A stretch of DNA of 20,000 nt from an uncultured virus (IMG/VR IMGVR_UViG_3300044640_001367) (IMGVR_UViG_3300044640_001367:51998-71997), one strand, 5' to 3'. Counted from the first letter of the stretch, positions 2,472-20,000 are shown. A program made the numbers and translations. Notes: generated by a model not told the origin, from the letters alone.

Positions 2472-3557
2472 ATGAGCGATCTATTAAAAGAAAGTATTGC
2501 GGATGCAAAGGCTGTTCGTGAAACAGCATTGGCAAATGCAAAAACCTTCCTTGAAGAAAGTTTTGCAAACAGTATGAAAGAAATGTTTGCGGACAAACTC
2601 AAAGAAGAAATGGCAGAAGAATCAACCGAAGAAGAAGAAGGTAAGATTGAAGAAAAGCTTGCATCTTCTAACATTGGTAAAAATGATGGTTTAACAGCTA
2701 AGACTTCTAAGCCAGCAAATCCATCTACACTCAAGTCTACATCTTCAAACGGTAAACAAGAATTTGATGTTAAACTTGAAGAAGAAGCTTCATCTGAAGA
2801 AGGCGATGAAGTAACTAGTGAAGAACTAGATGAAATTCTAGCTGAATTAGAAGGCGAAGTATCTGACGAAATGCACAGTCAAGGTTCTTCTGAAACACCC
2901 GATACAGGTGAAGAAATGGGCGAAGACATGGGTGATATTAATCTAGACGAACTTCTTGCTGAACTAGAAGCTGAAGATCCTTCTGCACTAGCTCCAGCTC
3001 CAGCTCCAGCTCCTGTTGCTCCTGATGCTCAAGCACCTGTAGATCAAGTACCTGCAGCTCCCGCTCCAGCACAAGTTCCATCTCCTTCTGAAGGAGGATA
3101 TGCAGACGAAGTTTCCGCCGAAGAAATGGCAGAAGCTTTGGTCGCTATCAACGAAGAAAACGAATCTCTTAAGAAACATTTATCAGAAGCTCTAAGCACT
3201 GTTAAGTTTATGAAGGGCGTTCTATCTGAAACCAACCTATTGAATGCTAAGTTGCTTTATACCAACAAGTTGTTCAAAGGTAAGAGTTTAACCGAAGATC
3301 AAAAACTTAAGATCATTAACACTTTCGACTTGACCAGAAACATCCGTGAAGTCAAGTTGGCATATACAGTTTTAGCCGAATCATTTAATTCCGGTGCATC
3401 AGTTGTCAAGAAAAAAACCAATACAACTGCTCACACTATCACCGAAGGTTTGGCAAGCAAACAAGTATCATCAACTAAGCCAGTATCTACTATTGTAGAA
3501 CCACACGCTGACGAGATGACTTCAAGATTCCAAAAACTCGCAGGAATCAAGAAGTAA
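2472..3557 (+). CDS. Prohead scaffolding/core protein (T4 gp22 positional analogue)
   Basis: 361 aa, highly acidic and helical, with many L-x-E sites, a Pro/Ala linker and a C-terminal RFQKLAGIKK. Immediately upstream of the capsid gene. Confidence 0.8.
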   Translation: MSDLLKESIADAKAVRETALANAKTFLEESFANSMKEMFADKLKEEMAEESTEEEEGKIEEKLASSNIGKNDGLTAKTSKPANPSTLKSTSSNGKQEFDVKLEEEASSEEGDEVTSEELDEILAELEGEVSDEMHSQGSSETPDTGEEMGEDMGDINLDELLAELEAEDPSALAPAPAPAPVAPDAQAPVDQVPAAPAPAQVPSPSEGGYADEVSAEEMAEALVAINEENESLKKHLSEALSTVKFMKGVLSETNLLNAKLLYTNKLFKGKSLTEDQKLKIINTFDLTRNIREVKLAYTVLAESFNSGASVVKKKTNTTAHTITEGLASKQVSSTKPVSTIVEPHADEMTSRFQKLAGIKK

Positions 3558-3610
3558 AATTAGTTTGCGAGTAAAAACCTAACAGTAATTAAATAAAGAA
3601 AGATACAAAT

Positions 3611-5449
3611 ATGAGTATGGATATTAAAAGTCTATTGACAAACAATATGAATCCACAGGCCAAATTAATGGCAGAAACACGTGGACTACAAGGCAAATGG
3701 GAAAAGACAGGCCTCCTAGAAGGTTGCAAAGGTGTTGAAAAAGCACATATGTCAATCCTATTAGAAAATCAAGCAAAACAATTGCTTGACGAAGCAACCA
3801 CAACTGGTACATCTACCAGTTCAGAACAATGGGCTGGCGTAGCTCTTCCATTGGTTCGTCGTGTGTTTGCTGAAATCGCTGCGAAGGAATTCGTAAGCGT
3901 TCAACCAATGAATCTACCATCTGGTCTAATCTTCTATCTAGACTTCAAGTATGGTACTAACGCTCCTGGTTCAGATTTGCGCAACTTGAACAACGGTAGT
4001 TCTGTAACTACCCGCGCCGGTAAGCAATTGAACGACAGTTTGTTTGGTGGTACAGGCAAGAAATTGGGTTCAACTGATAGCGCAGTACGTGGTTTATACG
4101 GCCAAGGTGCTTTTGCATATTCAGTTCGTCCAGTAAGTAGTTCCGCTATTACAATCACGTATTCATCAGGAGCAACCAATAACGGTGGTACAATTCAAAC
4201 CGCTTCTTGGAATGACGTACAATTTGATGCTGAATTGAGTGGTTCCGTGGTAGCTAAGAAATTGTTTAAAGTAATCTTGAATCACGATGATAATAATACC
4301 CCTGTATCAAGTTACGGAAATCTATACAACGTTGACTTGAATGCAGTGCGTTCATTCAACTTGATCTCAGGTTCAGGTGCGACCAATCCAGGCGCACTCA
4401 TTAAAAACGGTGTGGTGTTGAACACTTACAGCAAAGCGGTCAATACTGGTAGTTTGAGCAATCCATTCTATCAAACTGTATACATCGTATCCGCTTCACA
4501 GAGTACATTCGCTGGCGCCGCCTCCGGTCCAAGACTTAAATTGATCTATAGTCTACAACCTACGGACAACCTACGTGGTGACTTTGAAGCTGGTAAGACA
4601 CCAGGTGAAGGTTCTGGTACAGCTGCTAACGTTGCTACTCAAAGCATCGACACTGATATCAGTATCCCAGAAGTTAACTTGGTACTAAACAGCGAACCAA
4701 TCGTTGCTAAGACCCGTAAACTAAAGGCAGTCTGGACCCCAGAATTAGCGCAAGACTTGAACGCATATCACTCTATTGATGCAGAAGCAGAATTGACTGC
4801 TCTGTTGAGTGAATACGTATCTATGGAAATCGATCTAGAAATCCTAGAAATGTTGAACGGTGCCGTTCAAGGTATAACTACCGAAGCTTGGTCCGCCCAA
4901 ATCGGTGTTGAATTCAGCAAGGGATTGAATGCAACTACTGGTGACGCAGTATTCACACGTAATGCAAATGCTTCTGCAAATCGTACAGCTTACGTTAAGA
5001 GCACTTGGTTCCAAACTCTTGGTAACAAGATTCAAAAGGTATCTAACACAATCCAAAAATTGACCCTCCGTGGTGGTGCTAACTTCTTGGTCGTAAGTCC
5101 AGACGTAGCAACCATCTTGGAATCAATTCCAGGATATGTAGTAAACACCGATGGTGACAGTGCTAAGTTCGCAATGGGCGTTGCACGTGTTGGTAGCTTC
5201 GCAAGTCGCTTCCAAGTTTACAAGAACCCATATATGACCGATAATATCGTATTGGTTGGTTTCCGTGGAAATAACTTCCTAGAAACAGGCGCAGTATATG
5301 CTCCTTATATCCCACTAATCCAAACTCCATTGGTCTATGATCCAGTGAACTTCACTCCACGTAGAGGTGTAATGACCCGCTACGCTAAGAAGGTCGTGCG
5401 CCCAGAGTTCTATGGAAAAGTTATTATCGGTGATCTCGATACCGTATAA
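3611..5449 (+). CDS. gp23: Major capsid protein, T4 gp23-like
   Basis: Motifs ILLENQ, LVRRVF, VQPMNLPSGLIFYL, AKTRKLKAVWTPELAQDLNAYHSIDAEAELTALLSEYVSMEIDLEI, YAPYIPL and FTPRRGVMTRYA are typical of the gp23 family. Confidence 0.97.
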   Translation: MSMDIKSLLTNNMNPQAKLMAETRGLQGKWEKTGLLEGCKGVEKAHMSILLENQAKQLLDEATTTGTSTSSEQWAGVALPLVRRVFAEIAAKEFVSVQPMNLPSGLIFYLDFKYGTNAPGSDLRNLNNGSSVTTRAGKQLNDSLFGGTGKKLGSTDSAVRGLYGQGAFAYSVRPVSSSAITITYSSGATNNGGTIQTASWNDVQFDAELSGSVVAKKLFKVILNHDDNNTPVSSYGNLYNVDLNAVRSFNLISGSGATNPGALIKNGVVLNTYSKAVNTGSLSNPFYQTVYIVSASQSTFAGAASGPRLKLIYSLQPTDNLRGDFEAGKTPGEGSGTAANVATQSIDTDISIPEVNLVLNSEPIVAKTRKLKAVWTPELAQDLNAYHSIDAEAELTALLSEYVSMEIDLEILEMLNGAVQGITTEAWSAQIGVEFSKGLNATTGDAVFTRNANASANRTAYVKSTWFQTLGNKIQKVSNTIQKLTLRGGANFLVVSPDVATILESIPGYVVNTDGDSAKFAMGVARVGSFASRFQVYKNPYMTDNIVLVGFRGNNFLETGAVYAPYIPLIQTPLVYDPVNFTPRRGVMTRYAKKVVRPEFYGKVIIGDLDTV

Positions 5450-5473: not shown

Positions 5474-5502
5474 AAAAACCCCAACGAAAGTTGGGGTTTT
5501 TT
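5474..5502. terminator. Bidirectional intrinsic terminator
   Basis: AAAAACCCCAAC-GAAA-GTTGGGGTTTTTT is a perfect stem with a GNRA loop and a T tract on both strands, between the convergent capsid and mom genes. Confidence 0.92.
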
Positions 5503-6288: not shown

Positions 6289-6316
6289 ATTATAAACCTA
6301 TAATAAAGAATGTCAA
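6289..6316 (-). promoter_or_regulatory. Consensus sigma70-type promoter for mom
   Basis: Minus strand reads TTGACA (6316-6311), 16-nt spacer, TATAAT (6294-6289), GGGGGA, ATG (6282). Confidence 0.8.
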
Positions 6317-6319
6317 CAT

Positions 6320-6532
6320 TTATATTAAATAAAACAAGCCTTTTGAATTATAAACTACAATTCTGATCTTGGTATCGTTATCTTTAATGATACCGAGTTT
6401 ATCTGAAATTTGAAATGGACCTGGATGATTACTTGTACGTACACCCATTACTTTATCTTTTATTTTATATACATCCAAATCTGTATTAACAACACTTGCG
6501 TGATATTGTCTTCCCAAAGGTATCATTTTCAT
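6320..6532 (-). CDS. Small hypothetical protein (70 aa)
   Basis: Its ATG overlaps the cyclase TGA (ATGA overlap, 6529-6532), suggesting translational coupling. It fills the gap exactly up to the mom promoter. Confidence 0.65.
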   Translation of the reverse strand: MKMIPLGRQYHASVVNTDLDVYKIKDKVMGVRTSNHPGPFQISDKLGIIKDNDTKIRIVVYNSKGLFYLI

Positions 6533-8307
6533 AATGGTTTATTTGTTGTTGGTTCTGCTTTTTTTACTCTACTTGATGGAAATTCTTTGTTACCAAACTC
6601 GGTACCGTGTAAACTGTACAAATGCATTATTACACCGTGTTTTACAATTACATCCCCCAAATCATTTACCAAAACGTATGCTGGTCTATCATATTTCAAC
6701 ATTACAGCTGAACTAACTAATAAATGATTTGTTTCACCCGCATCCATTACTCTTTGAGCATAATTGATTCCATCACCGCTTATATTAAGATTTCCATTGA
6801 TATCTTCCATTGGAATTACAGGTCCACAGTGTACACCCATTCTCATTTGTAAGTCGGGTCTATCTTTTACTGCTTTAGCTATAGCAACGGCACAATTCAT
6901 TGCATCTTCTAGATACGTGAAAAATCCCATTACCATACCATCTCCGGTGGGTAATATAATCAACTTTTCAAGAGCATTAGCTGTTTTATATTGCATTGTA
7001 GATTTAACTAGTGTACCCAAGTCTTTACAAGCCTTCTTTTGTTCATCTGTGGTTTTTTTACTGTAAGCCACAATATCCATAAAGAATATGAAACCTTCTT
7101 GTTCAGTATCTAATTGTAATCGTCCTGATTTGACTTCCACGTCGATCTTGTCAACTTTACGAACTATTTGTTTAACTGGTTTTGGTACTTCAACCTTTGG
7201 TTGTTCTTCTTTCTTTTCTACAACCGGCATATTCTTTAATTTTAAAAAGTCTTTCCAGTTAATCTTTTTTGTTGGTGCATCTTTCTTTTTTGGTTCTTTT
7301 GCAGTCTGTTCTGCTTCTAGTTTCTTTATTGCTTCTTCTTCACGATTGCGTTTTTCAATGAATAACGCAATTTGTTTCTTAACTTCATCTGTAATATAAA
7401 TGTTTACATCTTTACCATTACCACCCGTATCGTGTTTCTTCTTTCTTAAAGCACCTTTGGCTTGTAAATAACTTTGCATTTCTACATTGCCTGTCTTGAA
7501 TGCAATGTCTAACGGAGCAATTTCTCCCTTAAAATCTGCACCATTAACATTTGCACCCAAATGTACCAAAAACTCCGTCATATCAACATCGTTAGCATTA
7601 ACGGCGTAATGTAATGGCATCCATCCATTCTTTTCATCTCTACCATTAATTTTACCGTCTTTATCAAAAAATGACTGTACACCTTCAAAATCACCGGTTT
7701 CAGCACAAAAATGAATATTAACACCACCAGCAGATTTAGCGCCATTTTTATTTAACAACTTAACAATTTCACCTCTATTAACATTGGATAACACATCTAT
7801 TGGATTGTTTTTACCTAAGAAATCTTTCTTGTTGACATCAGCACCTTTAACAATTAAATATTCAACCAAATGTTTTTGTCCATAATTAACCGCATAGTGT
7901 AGTGCTGTCCAACCTTTACCAGCGTCAACTTCATTGATATCTTGTTTTTTACTCAACATTTCTTCAATAGAAACAATATCACCATTCTTAGCAGCCAAAT
8001 GAAAACTGCTACCACTACTATATTTTGCACCTCGACCTTGCAATAATTCTGAAATGTGTTTAAACCCTTTTTGTTCAGATATATCTAATGCAGTATTTTT
8101 GCTTGTCCAATCTTTTACATTTACATCGGCGCCACGATTTAATAACAATTTGACTATTTCTATTTGATTTTCTTCTACTGCAACAACCAATGGTGGATTG
8201 CCGGTATCGTCATCTCTCTGATTAACGTCTATTTTTTCTTTTTCGATGCAATTGTATACGTTATCATACAACCCTCGTTTAATGTGGGTAAAAATATTGA
8301 TTGCCAT
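6529..8307 (-). CDS. Ankyrin-repeat protein fused to a class III (adenylate/guanylate-type) nucleotide cyclase domain
   Basis: N-terminal ~290 aa hold about 9 ankyrin repeats (GWTALHYAVNYG, GWMPLHYAVNAN, GADVN), followed by a K/E/P linker. The C-terminal domain has FMDIVAYS, TGDG, MRMGVHCGPV, GDGINYAQRVMD and LLVS. Confidence 0.9.
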   Translation of the reverse strand: MAINIFTHIKRGLYDNVYNCIEKEKIDVNQRDDDTGNPPLVVAVEENQIEIVKLLLNRGADVNVKDWTSKNTALDISEQKGFKHISELLQGRGAKYSSGSSFHLAAKNGDIVSIEEMLSKKQDINEVDAGKGWTALHYAVNYGQKHLVEYLIVKGADVNKKDFLGKNNPIDVLSNVNRGEIVKLLNKNGAKSAGGVNIHFCAETGDFEGVQSFFDKDGKINGRDEKNGWMPLHYAVNANDVDMTEFLVHLGANVNGADFKGEIAPLDIAFKTGNVEMQSYLQAKGALRKKKHDTGGNGKDVNIYITDEVKKQIALFIEKRNREEEAIKKLEAEQTAKEPKKKDAPTKKINWKDFLKLKNMPVVEKKEEQPKVEVPKPVKQIVRKVDKIDVEVKSGRLQLDTEQEGFIFFMDIVAYSKKTTDEQKKACKDLGTLVKSTMQYKTANALEKLIILPTGDGMVMGFFTYLEDAMNCAVAIAKAVKDRPDLQMRMGVHCGPVIPMEDINGNLNISGDGINYAQRVMDAGETNHLLVSSAVMLKYDRPAYVLVNDLGDVIVKHGVIMHLYSLHGTEFGNKEFPSSRVKKAEPTTNKPL

Positions 8308-8314
8308 AAGTAAA

Positions 8315-8704
8315 TTAGTCTTGTTTGTTTTCTTTTTTGAAACGAGCCAAATCCAACTGAGGTAGTGGTTTTTCTATATTTAGACCGGCCAATCTTTCAT
8401 TTTGAATAACTAATTTACTGCCACCTACAACCTTACCATCTACTACATCATATATAAAGAATACCGTTTTGGTTAAACCTACACGTACAATTCTTCCTGG
8501 TTTACCATCAACATATACAACGTCATCTTCTTTATAATCGGATCCAATAAACATAAAAAGCGCAGCTGCTAACTTTTCAATGCTTGATTTGAATATTAGA
8601 ATTACTAAACCGGCTAAGAACATCCAGACATATTTGCCTGTCATATCTTGCGCTGTTGATTCTAATACTTTTTCTGAAATTACTTGTACAGTATTTGTGT
8701 CCAT
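8315..8704 (-). CDS. Small membrane protein with MscS-like TM helix plus beta domain
   Basis: Hydrophobic YVWMFLAGLVILIF, then SIEKLAAALFMFIGSDYKEDDVVYVDGKPGRIVRVGLTKT, resembling the MscS TM3/middle beta domain (F..GD.I.I.G..G.V..I....T). Confidence 0.65.
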   Translation of the reverse strand: MDTNTVQVISEKVLESTAQDMTGKYVWMFLAGLVILIFKSSIEKLAAALFMFIGSDYKEDDVVYVDGKPGRIVRVGLTKTVFFIYDVVDGKVVGGSKLVIQNERLAGLNIEKPLPQLDLARFKKENKQD

Positions 8705-8773: not shown

Positions 8774-9739
8774 TCACTTCGTCCACTTTTGTTCTTTCAA
8801 GATATCATCAATCAAATCTTTTTCAGAGTTGTCCATTTCTTTGTCAAATCTCTTTAACACTTCGGTCAATGGATATACTCTGTCAGGAGATTCTTTTTGC
8901 TTTTCTTTGAGTTCTTGAATTACATCAACTATCTTAGTAAGTGGGGACTTATATTCATCAACTTTGTCTTTTGAAGCAAAGTTAGATATTTCAAATGCAT
9001 GTGGAGTTAATACTTTTACCAAACTTAATAGTCCGGATCCGATCATATTGAATATACTAAATACTGCACCAGCTGCTGGATGTACTGTTGCTAATATTCT
9101 AAGTATAACGAATACTACAACAAATATGATAATTGCGGTTAAAGCACTAATAAAGAACTTTTTTAAACCCCAAAATACAGCATTTAATCCAAACATACCA
9201 CTCATTGTATCAAGTGTAGCCTTGCTTTGATCTGCTTCTTTTGCAATTTCTTTTGCTTTATCAGTCATTTGCCAAAGTTCATCATCATACTTTTCTTTTA
9301 AAGCAGACTTTTCTTTTTGTAATTTGTTTATGATTTCGTCCCGTTGTGATAATAATTGATCACCTTTTTTTCGTTCTTCAGCTACTTGAGAATTAAGCAG
9401 ATCAACTGTAGCTTTAATTCTTTTAATTTCATCTATGTGTGGAGAACCAACGATAGAAATTACTCGTTCATTCAAAGATTTAGCTGTTTCTACTTGTATA
9501 GGCGCATTAGTTACTTGACTTAACGAATGTTGAATACCAATTGATAAAGAAGAAGTTTGTACTATTTTACCTTTTTCTACTTTTTCCAATTCTACCATTG
9601 TATTGTCTACTTTGGCTTCTTGTTTTGCAACGGCATCTTGTGCCACACTAACTTGCTTTGCTGATTTAACCTCTGATGAAATACATCCAGTTAATATCAA
9701 AATTACAATAGTATAAAACAGTTGCTTTTTAAAGTTCAT
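8774..9739 (-). CDS. Lipoprotein with coiled coil and C-terminal transmembrane segment(s); candidate unimolecular spanin
   Basis: Signal MNFKKQLFYTIVILILTG-C (lipobox), about 160 aa of helical/coiled-coil sequence, hydrophobic FFISALTAIIIFVVVFVILRIL, and a charged C-terminal domain. Confidence 0.7.
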   Translation of the reverse strand: MNFKKQLFYTIVILILTGCISSEVKSAKQVSVAQDAVAKQEAKVDNTMVELEKVEKGKIVQTSSLSIGIQHSLSQVTNAPIQVETAKSLNERVISIVGSPHIDEIKRIKATVDLLNSQVAEERKKGDQLLSQRDEIINKLQKEKSALKEKYDDELWQMTDKAKEIAKEADQSKATLDTMSGMFGLNAVFWGLKKFFISALTAIIIFVVVFVILRILATVHPAAGAVFSIFNMIGSGLLSLVKVLTPHAFEISNFASKDKVDEYKSPLTKIVDVIQELKEKQKESPDRVYPLTEVLKRFDKEMDNSEKDLIDDILKEQKWTK

Positions 9740-14380: not shown

Positions 14381-17300
14381 ATGTCAACATTGAAGAAAGA
14401 TCCATGTGAAGTTTCTCCATTAAAATTGGACAATGCTTTGTATGACTACAAAAAATTAACAGCGACTTTTAAAGATCCTACTACACCACTGTTTCTTAAA
14501 ATAATCGAAGAATTACGTGTTATTATTAATTGTAATGCCAATTTACAAAAAAATACACAGTCTATACAAGAATTTCCATGTGATTCAAAAACAGATACAT
14601 GGGTATATAATCATAATTTAAATTCGGAATTTGTATTGTTCATTGTATATGATCAAGATTTAAATCAAATAATACCTGAAAGCATAACTTTAAACAATAA
14701 AAACACAGCCACAATAAAATTCTCATTTCCTGCATGTGGTTATGTTTTTGCTATAGGTAGTAATGTAAGTACAAGTGGTATATCTGGCACAGGCACAAGT
14801 GGTAGTAGCGGTCAAAGTGGATCTAACGGAACAAGCGGAACAAGCGGAACAAGCGGTACTAGCGGAACTAGTGGCGAAAGCGCATTAAGTGGTACTAGTG
14901 CTACTAGTGGTAGTAGTGGTGAAAAAGGTTCATCTGGATCAAGTGGTACTAGCGGAACGAGTGGATTTAGCGGAACGAGCGGAACTAACGGAACTAACGG
15001 AACAAGTGGTACAAATGGAACTAGTGGATCTAGTGGTACAAGTGGATCCAGTGGTACAAGTGGAAGTAGTGGTAGTAGTGGATCTAGCGGATCTAGTGGT
15101 ACAAGTGGTACAAGTGGTACAAGTGGCGAAAGTGGAACTAGTGGTACAAGCGGATCTAGTGGTACTAGCGGATCAAGTGGAACCAGTGGATCTAGTGGAT
15201 CTAGTGGATCTAGTGGTACAAGCGGATCTAGTGGAACCAGTGGAACTAGTGGAAGTAGTGGAAGTAGTGGAACCAGTGGAACTAGTGGAAGTAGTGGAAC
15301 CAGTGGAACCAGTGGAACTAGTGGAAGTAGTGGATCAAGTGGAACCAGCGGAAGTAGTGGATCTAGTGGATCTAGTGGTACAAGTGGAACAAGTGGAAGT
15401 AGTGGTGAAAGTGGTACCAGCGGAAGTAGTGGATCCAGTGGATCTAGTGGTAGTAGTGGATCTAGTGGATCTAGCGGAACTAGTGGTACAAGTGGATCTA
15501 GCGAATCAAGTGGATCTAGTGGATCAAGTGGTACTAACGGAAGTAGTGGATCTAGCGGTACTAGTGGTGAAAGTGGTACTAGTGGTGAAAGTGGATCTAG
15601 TGGCGAAAGTGGATCTAGTGGTGAAAGTGGTACTAGTGGTGAAAGTGGTACTAGTGGTGAAAGTGGTACTAGTGGTACCAGCGGATCTAGCGGAACTAGT
15701 GGATCAAGTGGAACCAGTGGATCTAGTGGTACAAGTGGTACAAGTGGATCCAGTGGAACCAGCGGATCAAGTGGATCCAGTGGAACTAGCGGATCAAGTG
15801 GATCCAGTGGAACTAGCGGATCAAGTGGATCAAGTGGTACAAGTGGATCAAGTGGTACAAGTGGATCAAGTGGTACAAGTGGATCAAGTGGTACAAGTGG
15901 TACAAGTGGTACAAGTGGTGAAAGTGGTACAAGTGGATCAAGTGGATCAAGTGGTACAAGTGGTACAAGTGGTACAAGTGGTACAAGTGGATCAAGTGGA
16001 TCAAGTGGATCTAGCGGATCAAGTGGTACAAGTGGATCTAGCGGATCAAGTGGTACAAGTGGTTTAAGTGGAAGTAGTGGTACAAGCGGATCTAGTGGTA
16101 CAAGCGGATCTAGTGGTACAAGCGGATCTAGTGGTACAAGCGGATCTAGTGGTACAAGCGGATCTAGTGATACAAGCGGATCTAGTGGTACAAGCGGAAC
16201 AAGTGGATCTAGCGGAACTAGTGGTACAAGTGGTACAAGTGGTACAAGTGGATCTAGCGGAACTAGTGGTACAAGTGGTACAAGTGGATCTAGCGGAAGT
16301 AGTGGATCTAGCGGATCCAGTGGTACAAGTGGATCTAGCGGATCAAGTGGTACTAATGGAAGTAGTGGATCTAGCGGTACAAGTGGTACAACTGGATCAA
16401 GTGGATCAAGTGGTACAACTGGATCCAGCGGATCTAGTGGTTTAAGTGGGTCTAGCGGAACCAGCGGATTAAGTGGTGAAAGTGGATCTAGTGGTACAAG
16501 CGGATCCAGTGGTACAAGCGGATCTAGTGGTACAAGTGGATCTAGTGGCACAAGTGGTACAAGTGGATCTAGTGGAACTAGTGGAACTAGTGGATCTAGT
16601 GGATCTAGCGGATCTAGCGGATCTAATGGATCTAGTGGTACAAGTGGTACAAGTGGAAGTAGTGGTACAAGTGGAAGTAGTGGTACAAGTGGAAGTAGTG
16701 GTACAAGTGGATCTAGCGGAACTAGTGGTACAAGTGGATCAAGTGGTGAAAGTGGATCCAGTGGTACAAGTGGAACTAGTGGTACAAGTGGTACAAGCGG
16801 ATCTAGTGGAAGTAGTGGTACAAGCGGATCTAGTGGTACAAGCGGATCTAGTGGTACAAGTGGTACAAGCGGATCTAGTGGATCTAGTGGTACAAGTGGA
16901 TCTAGTGGATCTAGTGGTACAAGTGGTACAAGCGGATCTAGTGGATCTAGTGGTACAAGTGGATCTAGTGGTAGTAGTGGTACAAGTGGTACAAGTGGTT
17001 TAAGTGGATCTAGTGGAACTAGTGGTACAAATGGTACAAGTGGCGAAAGTGGATCTAGTGGTACAAGTGGATCCAATGGATCTAGTGGTACAAGCGGAAC
17101 TAGTGGATCTAGTGGTACAAGCGGATCTAGTGGTACAAACGGAACTAGTGGAAGTAGTGGTACAAGCGGAACTAGTGGATCTAATGGTACAAGTGGAACA
17201 AGTGGATCTAGTGGTACAAGCGGATCTAGTGGAACAAGTGGAACAAGTGGAACAAGTGGAACAAGTGGAACAAGTGGAACAAGTGGAAGTAGTGGTTTAA

Positions 17301-20000
17301 GTGGATCTAGTGGAACTAGTGGTACAAATGGTACAAGTGGCGAAAGTGGATCCAGTGGTACAAGCGGAACCAGTGGATCTAGTGGTACAAGCGGATCTAG
17401 TGGTACCAGCGGATCTAGTGGTACCAGTGGAACTAGTGGATCTAGTGGTACAAGCGGATCTAGTGGATCTAGTGGTACAAGCGGATCTAGTGGATCTAGT
17501 GGTACAAGCGGATCTAGTGGAACCAGTGGAACTAGTGGAAGTAGTGGTACAAGTGGAAGTAGTGGATCAAGTGGTACAAGTGGCAAAAGTGGATCTAGTG
17601 GTACAAGCGGAACTAGTGGTACAAGTGGAACTAGTGGATCTAGTGGTACAAGCGGATCTAGTGGTACAAGCGGAACCAGTGGATCTAGTGGTACAAGCGG
17701 ATCTAGTGGTACAAGCGGAACTAGTGGATCTAGTGGTACAAGCGGATCTAGTGGATCTAATGGTACAAGTGGTACAAGTGGTACAAATGGTACAAGTGGA
17801 TCTAGTGGTAGTAGTGGTACAAGTGGAAGTAGTGGAACAAGTGGAACAAGTGGAAGTAGTGGTTTAAGTGGATCTAGTGGAACTAGTGGTACAAGTGGCG
17901 AAAGTGGATCTAGTGGATCTAGTGGATCTAGTGGATCAAGTGGAAGTAGTGGTACCAGCGGAAGTAGTGGATCAAGTGGATCAAGTGGATCTAGTGGTAC
18001 CAGCGGATCTAGTGGTACCAGCGGATCTAGTGGTACCAGCGGATCTAGTGGTACCAGCGGATCTAGTGGAACTAGTGGTACAAGTGGCGAAAGTGGATCT
18101 AGTGGATCTAGTGGATCTAGTGGTACAAGTGGAAGTAGCGGTACCAACGGAACTAGTGGATCTAATGGTACAAGTGGTACAAGCGGATCTAGTGGTACAA
18201 GTGGAACTAGTGGATCTAGTGGTACAAGCGGATCTAGTGGTACAAACGGAACTAGTGGATCTAGTGATACAAGCGGATCTAGTGGATCTAATGGTACAAG
18301 TGGTACAAGCGGATCTAGTGGTACAAGTGGAAGTAGTGGATCTAGTGGAAGTAGTGGAATAAGTGGATCTAGTGGAACTAGTGGTACAAGTGGCGAAAGT
18401 GGATCTAGTGGATCTAGTGGAACTAGTGGTACAAGTGGCGAAAGTGGATCTAGTGGAAGTAGTGGATCTAGTGGAAGTAGTGGATCAAGTGGTACAAGTG
18501 GAAGTAGTGGTACAAGTGGAAGTAGTGGTACAAGTGGAAGTAGTGGAACAAGTGGAAGTAGTGGTACAAGTGGAAGTAGTGGAACAAGTGGAAGTAGTGG
18601 TACAAGTGGAAGTAGTGGATCAAGTGGTGAAAGCGGATCAAGTGGATCTAGCGGATCAAGTGGATCTAGCGGATCAAGTGGATCTAGCGGATCTAGTGGA
18701 TCTAGTGGTACAAGTGGAAGTAGCGGTACCAACGGAACTAGTGGATCTAATGGTACAAGTGGTACAAGCGGATCTAGTGGAAGTAGTGGAACAAGTGGAT
18801 CTAGTGGATCTAGTGGATCTAATGGAACTAGCGGAAGTAGTGGTAGTAGTGGTTTAAGTGGATCTAGTGGAAGTAGTGGATCTAGTGGAAGTAGTGGTAC
18901 AAGTGGAAGTAGTGGTACAAGTGGAAGTAGTGGAACAAGTGGAAGTAGTGGATCAAGTGGTGAAAGCGGATCAAGTGGATCTAGCGGATCAAGTGGAAGT
19001 AGTGGTACAAGTGGATCCAGTGGAAGTAGTGGTACAAGTGGATCCAGTGGAAGTAGTGGTACAAGTGGAACTAGTGGATCCAGTGGAAGTAGTGGATCAA
19101 GTGGAACTAGTGGAACTAGTGGATCTAGTGGATCAAGTGGTAGTAGTGGATCTAGTGGAACTAGTGGTACAAGCGGATCTAGTGGTACCAACGGATCTAG
19201 TGGTAGTAGTGGAACAAGTGGATCCAGCGGATCCAGTGGATCAAGTGGTGAAAGTGGAACTAGTGGTACAAGCGGATCAAGTGGAACTAGTGGATCCAGC
19301 GGAAGTAGTGGTACAAGTGGTACAAGTGGTACAAGCGGATCAAGTGGAAGTAGTGGAAGTAGTGGATCTAGCGGAACTAGTGGATCAAGTGGTGAAAGCG
19401 GATCAAGTGGATCTAGCGGTTCAAGTGGATCTAGCGGTTCAAGTGGAAGTAGTGGAAGTAGTGGAAGTAGTGGATCTAGTGGAAGTAGTGGTACAAGTGG
19501 AAGTAGTGGTACAAGTGGAAGTAGTGGTACAAGTGGAAGTAGCGGTACCAACGGAACTAGTGGATCTAATGGTACAAGTGGTACAAGCGGATCTAGTGGT
19601 ACAAGTGGAAGTAGTGGATCAAGTGGTAGTAGTGGTTTAAGTGGATCTAGTGGAAGTAGTGGATCTAGTGGAACTAGTGGATCTAATGGTACAAGTGGTA
19701 CAAGCGGATCTAGTGGTACAAGTGGATCTAGTGGTAGTAGTGGATCCAGCGGATCAAGTGGTACCAGCGGAAGTAGTGGTACCAGCGGATCTAGTAGTAC
19801 AAGTGGAAGTAGTGGTACGAGTGGAACAAGTGGATCAAGTGGTACAAGTGGATCTAGTGGAAGTAGTGGTACAAGTGGATCCAGCGGATCAAGTGGTACC
19901 AGCGGAAGTAGTGGTACCAGCGGATCTAGTAGTACAAGTGGAAGTAGTGGTACGAGTGGAACAAGTGGATCAAGTGGTACAAGTGGATCTAGTGGAAGTA
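14381..20000 (+). CDS. Giant Gly-X-Ser repeat (collagen-like periodicity) protein, probably a virion fibre; 3'-truncated and not in the ORF track
   Basis: Manual translation gives MSTLKKDPCEVSPLKLDNALYDYKK...TWVYNHNLNSEFVLFIVYDQDLNQIIPESITLNNKNTATIKFSFPACGYVFAIGSNVSTSG, then (GTS/GSS/GES)n. No stop was seen in this frame to the window end (>1870 aa). Confidence 0.9.
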   Translation, partial: MSTLKKDPCEVSPLKLDNALYDYKKLTATFKDPTTPLFLKIIEELRVIINCNANLQKNTQSIQEFPCDSKTDTWVYNHNLNSEFVLFIVYDQDLNQIIPESITLNNKNTATIKFSFPACGYVFAIGSNVSTSGISGTGTSGSSGQSGSNGTSGTSGTSGTSGTSGESALSGTSATSGSSGEKGSSGSSGTSGTSGFSGTSGTNGTNGTSGTNGTSGSSGTSGSSGTSGSSGSSGSSGSSGTSGTSGTSGESGTSGTSGSSGTSGSSGTSGSSGSSGSSGTSGSSGTSGTSGSSGSSGTSGTSGSSGTSGTSGTSGSSGSSGTSGSSGSSGSSGTSGTSGSSGESGTSGSSGSSGSSGSSGSSGSSGTSGTSGSSESSGSSGSSGTNGSSGSSGTSGESGTSGESGSSGESGSSGESGTSGESGTSGESGTSGTSGSSGTSGSSGTSGSSGTSGTSGSSGTSGSSGSSGTSGSSGSSGTSGSSGSSGTSGSSGTSGSSGTSGSSGTSGTSGTSGESGTSGSSGSSGTSGTSGTSGTSGSSGSSGSSGSSGTSGSSGSSGTSGLSGSSGTSGSSGTSGSSGTSGSSGTSGSSGTSGSSDTSGSSGTSGTSGSSGTSGTSGTSGTSGSSGTSGTSGTSGSSGSSGSSGSSGTSGSSGSSGTNGSSGSSGTSGTTGSSGSSGTTGSSGSSGLSGSSGTSGLSGESGSSGTSGSSGTSGSSGTSGSSGTSGTSGSSGTSGTSGSSGSSGSSGSNGSSGTSGTSGSSGTSGSSGTSGSSGTSGSSGTSGTSGSSGESGSSGTSGTSGTSGTSGSSGSSGTSGSSGTSGSSGTSGTSGSSGSSGTSGSSGSSGTSGTSGSSGSSGTSGSSGSSGTSGTSGLSGSSGTSGTNGTSGESGSSGTSGSNGSSGTSGTSGSSGTSGSSGTNGTSGSSGTSGTSGSNGTSGTSGSSGTSGSSGTSGTSGTSGTSGTSGTSGSSGLSGSSGTSGTNGTSGESGSSGTSGTSGSSGTSGSSGTSGSSGTSGTSGSSGTSGSSGSSGTSGSSGSSGTSGSSGTSGTSGSSGTSGSSGSSGTSGKSGSSGTSGTSGTSGTSGSSGTSGSSGTSGTSGSSGTSGSSGTSGTSGSSGTSGSSGSNGTSGTSGTNGTSGSSGSSGTSGSSGTSGTSGSSGLSGSSGTSGTSGESGSSGSSGSSGSSGSSGTSGSSGSSGSSGSSGTSGSSGTSGSSGTSGSSGTSGSSGTSGTSGESGSSGSSGSSGTSGSSGTNGTSGSNGTSGTSGSSGTSGTSGSSGTSGSSGTNGTSGSSDTSGSSGSNGTSGTSGSSGTSGSSGSSGSSGISGSSGTSGTSGESGSSGSSGTSGTSGESGSSGSSGSSGSSGSSGTSGSSGTSGSSGTSGSSGTSGSSGTSGSSGTSGSSGTSGSSGSSGESGSSGSSGSSGSSGSSGSSGSSGSSGTSGSSGTNGTSGSNGTSGTSGSSGSSGTSGSSGSSGSNGTSGSSGSSGLSGSSGSSGSSGSSGTSGSSGTSGSSGTSGSSGSSGESGSSGSSGSSGSSGTSGSSGSSGTSGSSGSSGTSGTSGSSGSSGSSGTSGTSGSSGSSGSSGSSGTSGTSGSSGTNGSSGSSGTSGSSGSSGSSGESGTSGTSGSSGTSGSSGSSGTSGTSGTSGSSGSSGSSGSSGTSGSSGESGSSGSSGSSGSSGSSGSSGSSGSSGSSGSSGTSGSSGTSGSSGTSGSSGTNGTSGSNGTSGTSGSSGTSGSSGSSGSSGLSGSSGSSGSSGTSGSNGTSGTSGSSGTSGSSGSSGSSGSSGTSGSSGTSGSSSTSGSSGTSGTSGSSGTSGSSGSSGTSGSSGSSGTSGSSGTSGSSSTSGSSGTSGTSGSSGTSGSSGS
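14792..20000 (+). repeat. Degenerate 9-bp coding tandem repeat (GGW-NNN-AGY), about 578 units
   Basis: Units such as GGATCTAGT, GGTACAAGT and GGAAGTAGT. The 9-bp register was the same at every checkpoint tested (14882, 15503, 16169, 18266, 19796, 19931). Confidence 0.97.

Follow-up and report, generated by a model that had tools for sequence, protein, structure and literature searches.

The window, i.e. the whole stretch of 20,000 nucleotides analysed here, forms the final 20 kb of a virus record that is 72 kb long and 27% complete and comes from a large phage of lake water. A T4-like head module is present in it, with prohead protease, gp23 capsid, neck and gp15-like genes. The ankyrin-class III cyclase gene and the capsid and neck genes are on different strands; the domains, key residues and immediate neighbours of the former are collected in Table 1. 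Three further features of the window were recorded. An open-ended ORF of more than 1,870 aa (14381-20000, plus strand) begins with a 140-aa head that weakly matches a virion protein, and the rest is made up almost entirely of Gly/Ser/Thr triplets. A 12-of-12 sigma-70 consensus (6289-6316, minus strand) is located directly upstream of a Mom-like gene, and a 12-pair hairpin (5474-5501) lies between the converging capsid and Mom genes.

Table 1. Features of the ankyrin-cyclase locus, in window coordinates.
Feature	Position	Strand	Basis
Ankyrin-class III cyclase gene (P0001)	6529..8307	-	Intact ORF, 592 aa; 76 viral loci; purifying selection
Nine ankyrin repeats as three 96-residue, three-repeat blocks, aa 1-288	7444..8307	-	Pfam, structure model, motif spacing
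Charged linker, aa 289-398	7114..7443	-	K+R 30, D+E 20 of 110 residues
Class III cyclase domain, LPTGDG subfamily, aa 399-582	6562..7113	-	Pfam, model, structure matches
Asp411 (FMDIV), first metal ligand	7075..7077	-	119/119 aligned copies; 148/149 subfamily representatives
Leu452, Lys (AC) / Glu (GC) site	6952..6954	-	Conservation and profile alignment
Asp456 (IILPTGDG), second metal ligand	6940..6942	-	119/119 aligned copies; 149/149 representatives
Asn508, Asp/Thr (AC) / Cys (GC) site	6784..6786	-	Conservation and profile alignment
Asn515-x3-Arg519 (INYAQR), transition-state pair	6751..6765	-	119/119 aligned copies and subfamily
Lys556 (VKHG), likely gamma-phosphate lysine	6640..6642	-	119/119; 148/149; role by analogy with RhGC Lys612 (excerpts of PMC7384201)
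Mini-MscS-like membrane protein	8315..8704	-	Directly upstream of cyclase, 7 bp gap; gained/lost with cyclase in slot
70-aa orphan	6320..6532	-	Start overlaps cyclase stop (ATGA)
Lipoprotein-like coiled-coil membrane protein	8774..9739	-	Flanking resident; stays when cyclase cassette is absent

A Pfam scan of the protein gave Ank_2 at an E value of 5.7e-34 and Guanylate_cyc above cut-off. The initial annotation had read the ankyrins as three blocks of three repeats, each block ending in GA(K/L), and this arrangement was reproduced: GAK falls at residues 93 and 189 and GAL at 285, GA[DN]VN falls at 59, 155 and 251 (an exact 96-residue spacing), and the ankyrin region of the structure model contains nine helix pairs. 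The linker was modelled as a long predicted helix (307-337) and a short conserved helix (351-358), with the remainder at low confidence; the site of the N-terminal hallmark helix of PycC, immediately preceding the cyclase domain, falls within this low-confidence linker. The cyclase-domain model had a pLDDT of 97 and a Foldseek E value of 3e-11, and class III cyclases matched it at Z 19.8 (rmsd 2.5, 156 residues aligned). Foldseek with the full-length model returned ankyrin proteins alone. The ankyrin and cyclase assignments do not reflect chance, given the Pfam scores, the pLDDT, the Z score and the residue invariance described below. PADLOC and NCBIfam searches with the protein produced generic ankyrin matches and a weak LipJ match far below cut-off, on which basis filing as a defence gene or secreted effector was dropped.

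The protein set used for conservation was drawn from 123 matches, of which 120 were listed; two non-ankyrin matches were left out, and 118 ankyrin-cyclases were aligned with the window protein. D411, D456, N515, R519, R489, K556, Leu452 and Asn508 were invariant in 119 of 119 sequences (among the matches listed, many of them near-identical). The metal-binding Asp pair and the N-x3-R pair reported in the initial annotation are accordingly present and fixed. The register of the base-site residues was set by a profile-based alignment with a canonical adenylyl cyclase of phage origin, which places L452 opposite K and N508 opposite T. An alternative register with residue 451 at the Lys site was of no help, as phage copies have Ile or Val there. 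The earlier claim that Lys or Glu had been lost just before GD was right about the loss and wrong about the position, which is Leu452, four residues before the second Asp. The Asn noted earlier at the second specificity position was placed correctly, since Asn508 pairs with the Thr of the canonical enzyme. The catalytic fold, the two metal-binding aspartates and the Asn-x3-Arg pair of class III enzymes are all present, and from these residues the protein is probably an active class III cyclase. With Leu452/Asn508 it has neither the Lys plus Asp/Thr of canonical adenylyl cyclases (rule as given in excerpts of PMC7384201) nor the Glu plus Cys/Ser of canonical guanylyl cyclases.

Ankyrin-cyclases were found at 76 loci in IMG/VR. 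dN/dS was calculated for 33 unique phage CDS from pairs with dS of 0.1-1.5 and was 0.044, 0.047 and 0.066 in the three ankyrin blocks, 0.083 in the linker and 0.042 in the cyclase. A shorter ankyrin-cyclase with two ankyrin blocks was carried by a second phage group (38 loci). This group is called marine-type here from one Tara source label and from its gene content, which we take to be marine-type. One small unrelated phage (L107) also carried an ankyrin-cyclase. At least three lineages of uncultured phages carry the ankyrin-cyclase, which is under strong selection. No match to the cyclase domain was obtained in any of 50,697 GenBank phage records. At L055 and L142 the gene is apparently split into two ORFs, representing either an assembly error or a broken copy. 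Contigs from RNA libraries covered parts of the gene in 4/4 runs, although such contigs cannot show transcription. A promoter scan of the cassette gave nothing above chance (19 found, 22 expected).

Neighbouring genes were compared across 79 loci: 71 had the mini-MscS-like gene, 68 the lipoprotein-like gene and 63 the 70-aa orphan. For the mini-MscS-like protein, an MscS beta-domain was matched at E 9e-7 in a distant relative and at 0.033 in a near one; the window's own copy gave no match. The term 'lipoprotein-like' is a reading from the protein's sequence, for which there is no curated family. The orphan start overlapped the cyclase stop in 63/63 cases, and the orphan occurs only behind an ankyrin-cyclase: the cyclase was directly upstream at 63 of 64 loci, the last being cut by a contig end. 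Family scans assigned no family to the orphan and no Atlas match was found. Complex prediction for the full protein with the orphan scored 0.00, the orphan itself being poorly folded, and carries no weight for or against an interaction. At three loci a membrane-anchored PAS protein takes the place of the orphan behind the cyclase (e.g. L070:9769-10386).

Twenty loci at least 85% identical were compared with the capsid gene as anchor. The cyclase was in the slot at 13 of these and missing from 4, and 3 were cut. The four loci without it also had no mini-MscS or orphan gene and kept the lipoprotein-like gene, so a fixed unit of lipoprotein, MscS and cyclase genes was rejected. The ankyrin-cyclase was not found in four records that lack it at the slot, a result that is uninformative since they are fragmentary (6-30% complete). 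Description of the gene as cargo of a structural region was misleading, given the opposite strand, the slot without a cyclase in 4/20 close relatives and the unrelated surroundings in other phages.

Loci were also anchored on the mini-MscS gene (best 80 of 89). The next gene was the ankyrin-cyclase in 72; in 4 it was replaced by an outer-membrane-barrel-like gene, a canonical membrane adenylyl cyclase and an HD gene; an HD gene alone followed in 2, and 2 were cut. The ankyrin-cyclase was present elsewhere on the same contig in 3 of the 6 loci at which it was not adjacent. A cyclase or HD gene therefore followed at 78 of 78 uncut loci among these best 80, which suggests that the mini-MscS gene is followed by a cyclic-nucleotide island with exchangeable contents, the ankyrin-cyclase among them; the slot loci belong to related phages, and the counts are not of independent events. 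Among loci of the second phage group, 21/39 had a mini-MscS gene nearby and none had it adjacent to the cyclase, and given this non-adjacency physical pairing of its product with the cyclase is only putative. The mini-MscS gene was not found in the three cellular carriers of the fusion. At L119, L126, L131 and L132, all of the second group, prepilin-like genes (cluster M14) lie near the cyclase. This gene type is common in Verrucomicrobiota and Planctomycetota.

At L283 the three-gene replacement set lies between the same flanking genes as the ankyrin-cyclase. The cassette of barrel-like, canonical membrane adenylyl cyclase and Npun_R2479-like HD genes was located at L283:4394-7267, L021:2947-5814 and L381, and is a candidate make-and-break cAMP unit. 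The canonical second cyclase carried Asp, Lys, Asp, Thr, Asn and Arg at the six key positions in 120/120 copies, and its best PDB match was CyaB. Among 18 close loci of this enzyme, the ankyrin-cyclase was just upstream, i.e. in tandem, in 8; in one complete genome the two genes were 15 kb apart. Retention of both cyclases together (the eight tandem loci and the complete genome) is as compatible with two different products as with two inputs. The HD protein (L283:6488-7267) resembled Npun_R2479 at a score far below the NCBIfam cut-off (54 of 400 bits). Homologs at approximately 30% identity were present in 3/3 gene-sharing bacteria, and in the HD protein search PDEase_I was found on 15-23% of two viral clusters. 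A phosphodiesterase-like role of the HD protein, as read from these matches, is only a lead.

Representatives at 50% identity were searched with the cyclase domain, and the clusters matched numbered at least 500 with an E value of 1e-30 or lower and 1,998 with one of 1e-10 or lower. The name LPTGDG is a working name coined here for this subfamily and does not denote a published family. In the best 149 representatives, with the self cluster excluded, the first base site was Leu in 128, Ile in 16, Arg in 3, Thr in 1, Val in 1 and Glu in none, and the second was Asn in 143, Asp in 5 and Thr in 1. The phage protein has the subfamily motifs L-P-T-G-D-G-M, N-x2-G-x-G-I-N-x-A-Q-R-V-M-D and V-K-H-G. 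Pfam was run on 60 of the 149 representatives and identified TPR repeats in 22, Ser/Thr kinases in 15, trypsin in 2, ankyrins in 2 and TIR in 1. The base residues were rightly described at the outset as non-canonical, but they are no peculiarity of the phage: a large subfamily of bacterial enzymes has Leu/Asn as its usual pair, and the phage did not invent the pocket. As far as these residues go, enzymes of the subfamily cannot be classified by the textbook specificity rule. At 17 loci of bacterial relatives, the base sites were Arg/Asp in 5 and Arg/Asn in 2. The Arg/Asp members are acidobacterial (L087, L090, L091, L094 and L096), four of them Pyrinomonadaceae. In a separate 368-aa protein (P0135) an LPTGDG domain is joined to a canonical Lys/Asp cyclase domain, possibly forming a single-chain pseudo-heterodimer.

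To identify cellular copies, 185,579 species genomes were scanned and 23 loci were obtained. Three full or near-full copies, 68-70% identical, were located in Verrucomicrobiota assemblies of 63-65% GC. Their GC3 was 0.81-0.82, versus 0.24 in the phage, and they had chromosomal neighbours such as DNA ligase. One of these cellular loci (L078) has its copy between an MreB-like actin gene (3526-4608) and a formylglycine-enzyme-like gene (6774-7763). AT-rich copies in bins labelled Gammaproteobacteria, Bacteroidetes and Flavobacteriales (L079, L081 and L082) look like mis-binned phage DNA. The fusion was present in 3/61 of the nearest Verrucomicrobiota relatives and in 1/151 order-level genomes, this one being the query genome itself; assemblies in both sets are incomplete. 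These counts weakened a first reading in which a host gene had been captured by the phage. The ankyrin-cyclases formed one branch (SH-aLRT 100), and in a quick tree the cellular copies nested with one freshwater phage subgroup (support 99). Phage monophyly was marginally rejected (AU p 0.031), the tested group having been named after the first tree. Transfer of the fusion from phage to host is likely on this phylogeny, subject to the long outgroup branch, the differing base composition and the post hoc naming of the group. We infer a Verrucomicrobiota host from gene sharing alone. Each of three gene-sharing genomes encoded 7-9 cNMP-binding domains as well as other cyclases. No cNMP-binding domain (PF00027) was detected in six of six phage records, four of them rated complete, and a receptor of an unrecognised type is possible; nor was any cNMP-binding TIR or membrane effector family found among the window neighbours. 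With such domains in the bacteria and none recognised in the phage, the signal would be read by host proteins.

The reading that we favour, tentatively and at slightly less than an even chance, is that a class III cyclase behind ankyrins makes cAMP in the infected cell, where it is read by the host, and that the enzyme is switched through its ankyrins and encoded in a swappable island. The protein would likely dimerise via its cyclase domain and produce 3',5'-cAMP. For ATP preference, Asn508 would stand in for Asp/Thr at adenine N6 and Leu452 would supply a hydrophobic wall only. A protein bound to the slowly evolving ankyrin blocks would set when or where the cyclase acts, and such control through an ankyrin ligand is plausible. 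The cAMP would in turn act on regulators or channels of the host that bind cNMPs, and these would alter metabolism or the state of the envelope to the benefit of the phage.

Evidence on the product was drawn from the pocket and from structural ranking. Adenylyl cyclases use Lys plus Asp/Thr and guanine is selected mainly by Glu (excerpts of PMC7384201 and PMC2576301). In the accessible text of the Pucsar preprint, PucC has Glu118 four residues ahead of Asp122 (bioRxiv 10.64898/2026.08.12.744502), where the phage protein has L452 ahead of D456. The PycC pocket fillers given in the available part of PMC11224242 are Y50/D94/R97, F100/R142/Q144 or F60/K104/F109, i.e. D, Q or K at -2 with R at +1 or F at +3. 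With the catalytic aspartates as reference points, the pocket of the phage protein comprises F409, L452, T454, G457 and V459, with T454, G457 and V459 at these filler positions; the comparison was mapped by distance from the catalytic Asp and not by superposition. Purine cyclases ranked at Z 17-19.8 in structure comparison, led by Rv1264, a guanylate cyclase, Rv1900c and CyaB (18.2-19.8), and PycC structures ranked lower (Z 16.1, 15.2 and 14.3). Among the 29 PDB sequences that the family profile picked up, 3mr7, Ma1120 and Rv1900c came first and none was labelled PycC. The Arg/Asp pair of 5/17 bacterial relatives resembles the adenylyl Lys/Asp pair, so that these polar variants would point the pocket to adenine. 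Rv0386 has Asn at the second base site and Rv1900c is without the Lys. Because Asn can act as either donor or acceptor of a hydrogen bond, Asn508 is compatible with GTP as well. The two-residue rule is a poor predictor of specificity. Ma1120 K101E/D157G keeps its ATP preference, so that swaps do not follow the rule cleanly (portions of PMC4215837), Rv0386 has 20% guanylyl side activity (portions of PMC4452763), and Rv1900c has been characterised as atypical and perhaps dual (portions of PMC4886424).

From this pocket, cAMP is considered somewhat better than an even bet as the main product, because no guanine-selecting Glu and no PycC-type filler is present and relatives carry the adenine-type pair. 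The earlier view of an active cyclase with an unpredictable product holds insofar as the K/D or E/C rule cannot read the product. It is weakened as regards an exotic product, since the missing Glu and fillers and the higher rank of purine cyclases lean towards cAMP. A purine cyclase making cGMP, or both cAMP and cGMP, as a second channel beside the canonical adenylyl cyclase is unlikely. The missing adenine-N1 lysine, the ambivalent Asn508, the two cyclases kept together and the easy product change that Pucsar cGMP cyclases show among relatives (same preprint, accessible text) would all suit it, but Glu is missing from the first site throughout the 149 best representatives, unlike Glu118 of PucC, and the polar variants of the subfamily are Arg/Asp. 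Production of cUMP, cCMP or a modified-base nucleotide is highly unlikely. Both purine-selecting residues are replaced, F409 matches the PycC aromatics F100, F60 and Y50 (PMC11224242, available part), and Q423, D502, N504 and Q518 are further invariant polar residues with no assigned role; however, F409 is also standard in adenylyl cyclases (FSDI), the PycC fillers at -2 (D94, Q144, K104) and after the Asp (R97, F109) are small residues here, PycC structures rank below purine cyclases, and no CNBD effector was found in the six phage records. An equally low probability is given to a near-inactive nucleotide-binding or scaffold domain with the ankyrin array doing the work: loss of both selecting residues could lower turnover, yet the metal, transition-state and phosphate residues are all invariant in phage copies and nearly so in the 149 relatives. 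Any other outcome has only a very slight probability.

Two wider readings concern the role of the signal. In a counter-defence role, which is rated improbable, a 'wrong' cNMP would flood the cell and block host cNMP-gated immune effectors, or host LPTGDG cyclases would be poisoned by pairing, with the ankyrins sensing a defence protein. The TPR, Ser/Thr kinase, trypsin and TIR fusions of the subfamily are architectures typical of conflict systems and the gene occurs in several phage lineages. The slow evolution of the ankyrins (dN/dS 0.044-0.066) is nevertheless unlike that of arms-race sensors, a search of the 61 genomes nearest to the cellular carriers found no other LPTGDG cyclase at E 1e-20, and the gene has a chromosomal setting in three bacteria. 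It is similarly doubtful that large aquatic phages run a cNMP circuit of their own, encoded in an island linked to mini-MscS and composed of an ankyrin-gated cyclase with a non-cAMP signal, the canonical cyclase and a phosphodiesterase, with the fusion having arisen in phages and later passed to a host lineage; if true, this would give the first product assignment for hundreds of bacterial cyclases.

To our knowledge, most of the phage genes reported in connection with cyclic nucleotides act to destroy signals of the host. The ankyrin-cyclase, unlike these, looks built to make one. A product assignment for the phage enzyme would also serve the whole subfamily, whose clusters at 50% identity number at least 500, and the cyclase domain is soluble, 190 aa long and easy to express. 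No report of a phage ankyrin-cyclase and no assay of any LPTGDG subfamily member was found in the open-licence literature. PMC7824862 mentions no cNMP cyclase and no ankyrin, and the available portions of PMC2447327, PMC13573597 and bioRxiv 10.64898/2026.10.24.761521 contain no relevant passage. Conflict systems with cNMP cyclases are mentioned in excerpts of PMC8195603, and Table S1 of the Pucsar preprint may already place the LPTGDG subfamily. The concept is not new: phage adenylate cyclases have been published in pelagiphage curli clusters (PMC9599517, in the parts available), and non-canonical pockets are known in mycobacterial enzymes.

Among known systems, the phage cyclase is most like Rv1900c/LipJ (1ybt), Rv1264 (1y10), Ma1120 (4wp3) and the Silicibacter protein 3mr7, with which it shares the fold (Z 19.8, 19.0, 15.9 and 18.1, respectively), the GDG loop and the metal aspartates, and which are among its best profile matches. 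It is only 15-24% identical to soluble bacterial adenylyl cyclases and differs from them in its Leu/Asn pocket, its ankyrin fusion and its carriage by a phage; 3mr7 has Lys and Asp at the two base sites. The named LPTGDG relatives, from Acidobacteriota, Chthoniobacterales and Armatimonadota, have the same motifs at 40-50% identity over the domain, whereas their fusions are to TPR or kinase domains and the ankyrin fusions form their own, mostly viral branch. With Pycsar PycC (7r65, 8jsz and 8jsf) and Pucsar PucC it shares the class III fold, a non-textbook base pocket and a phage-host context. PycC and PucC belong to host defence and are encoded next to an effector of the CNBD-TIR or membrane type, whereas this gene is viral and has neither such an effector nor their pocket residues. 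The cyclase of the pelagiphage curli/T8SS cluster (PMC9599517, available text) is likewise a phage-encoded adenylate cyclase among envelope genes. Comparable cassettes of CsgG-like, FecR-like and 680-aa membrane adenylyl cyclase genes were seen in other large aquatic phages (L400:725-5864, L414 and L397), their labels being a reading of the genes made without a family scan. The cyclases of the curli-type cassettes seen here are canonical membrane enzymes; they have Lys as the first base-site residue and no ankyrins, and they belong to an unrelated gene set.
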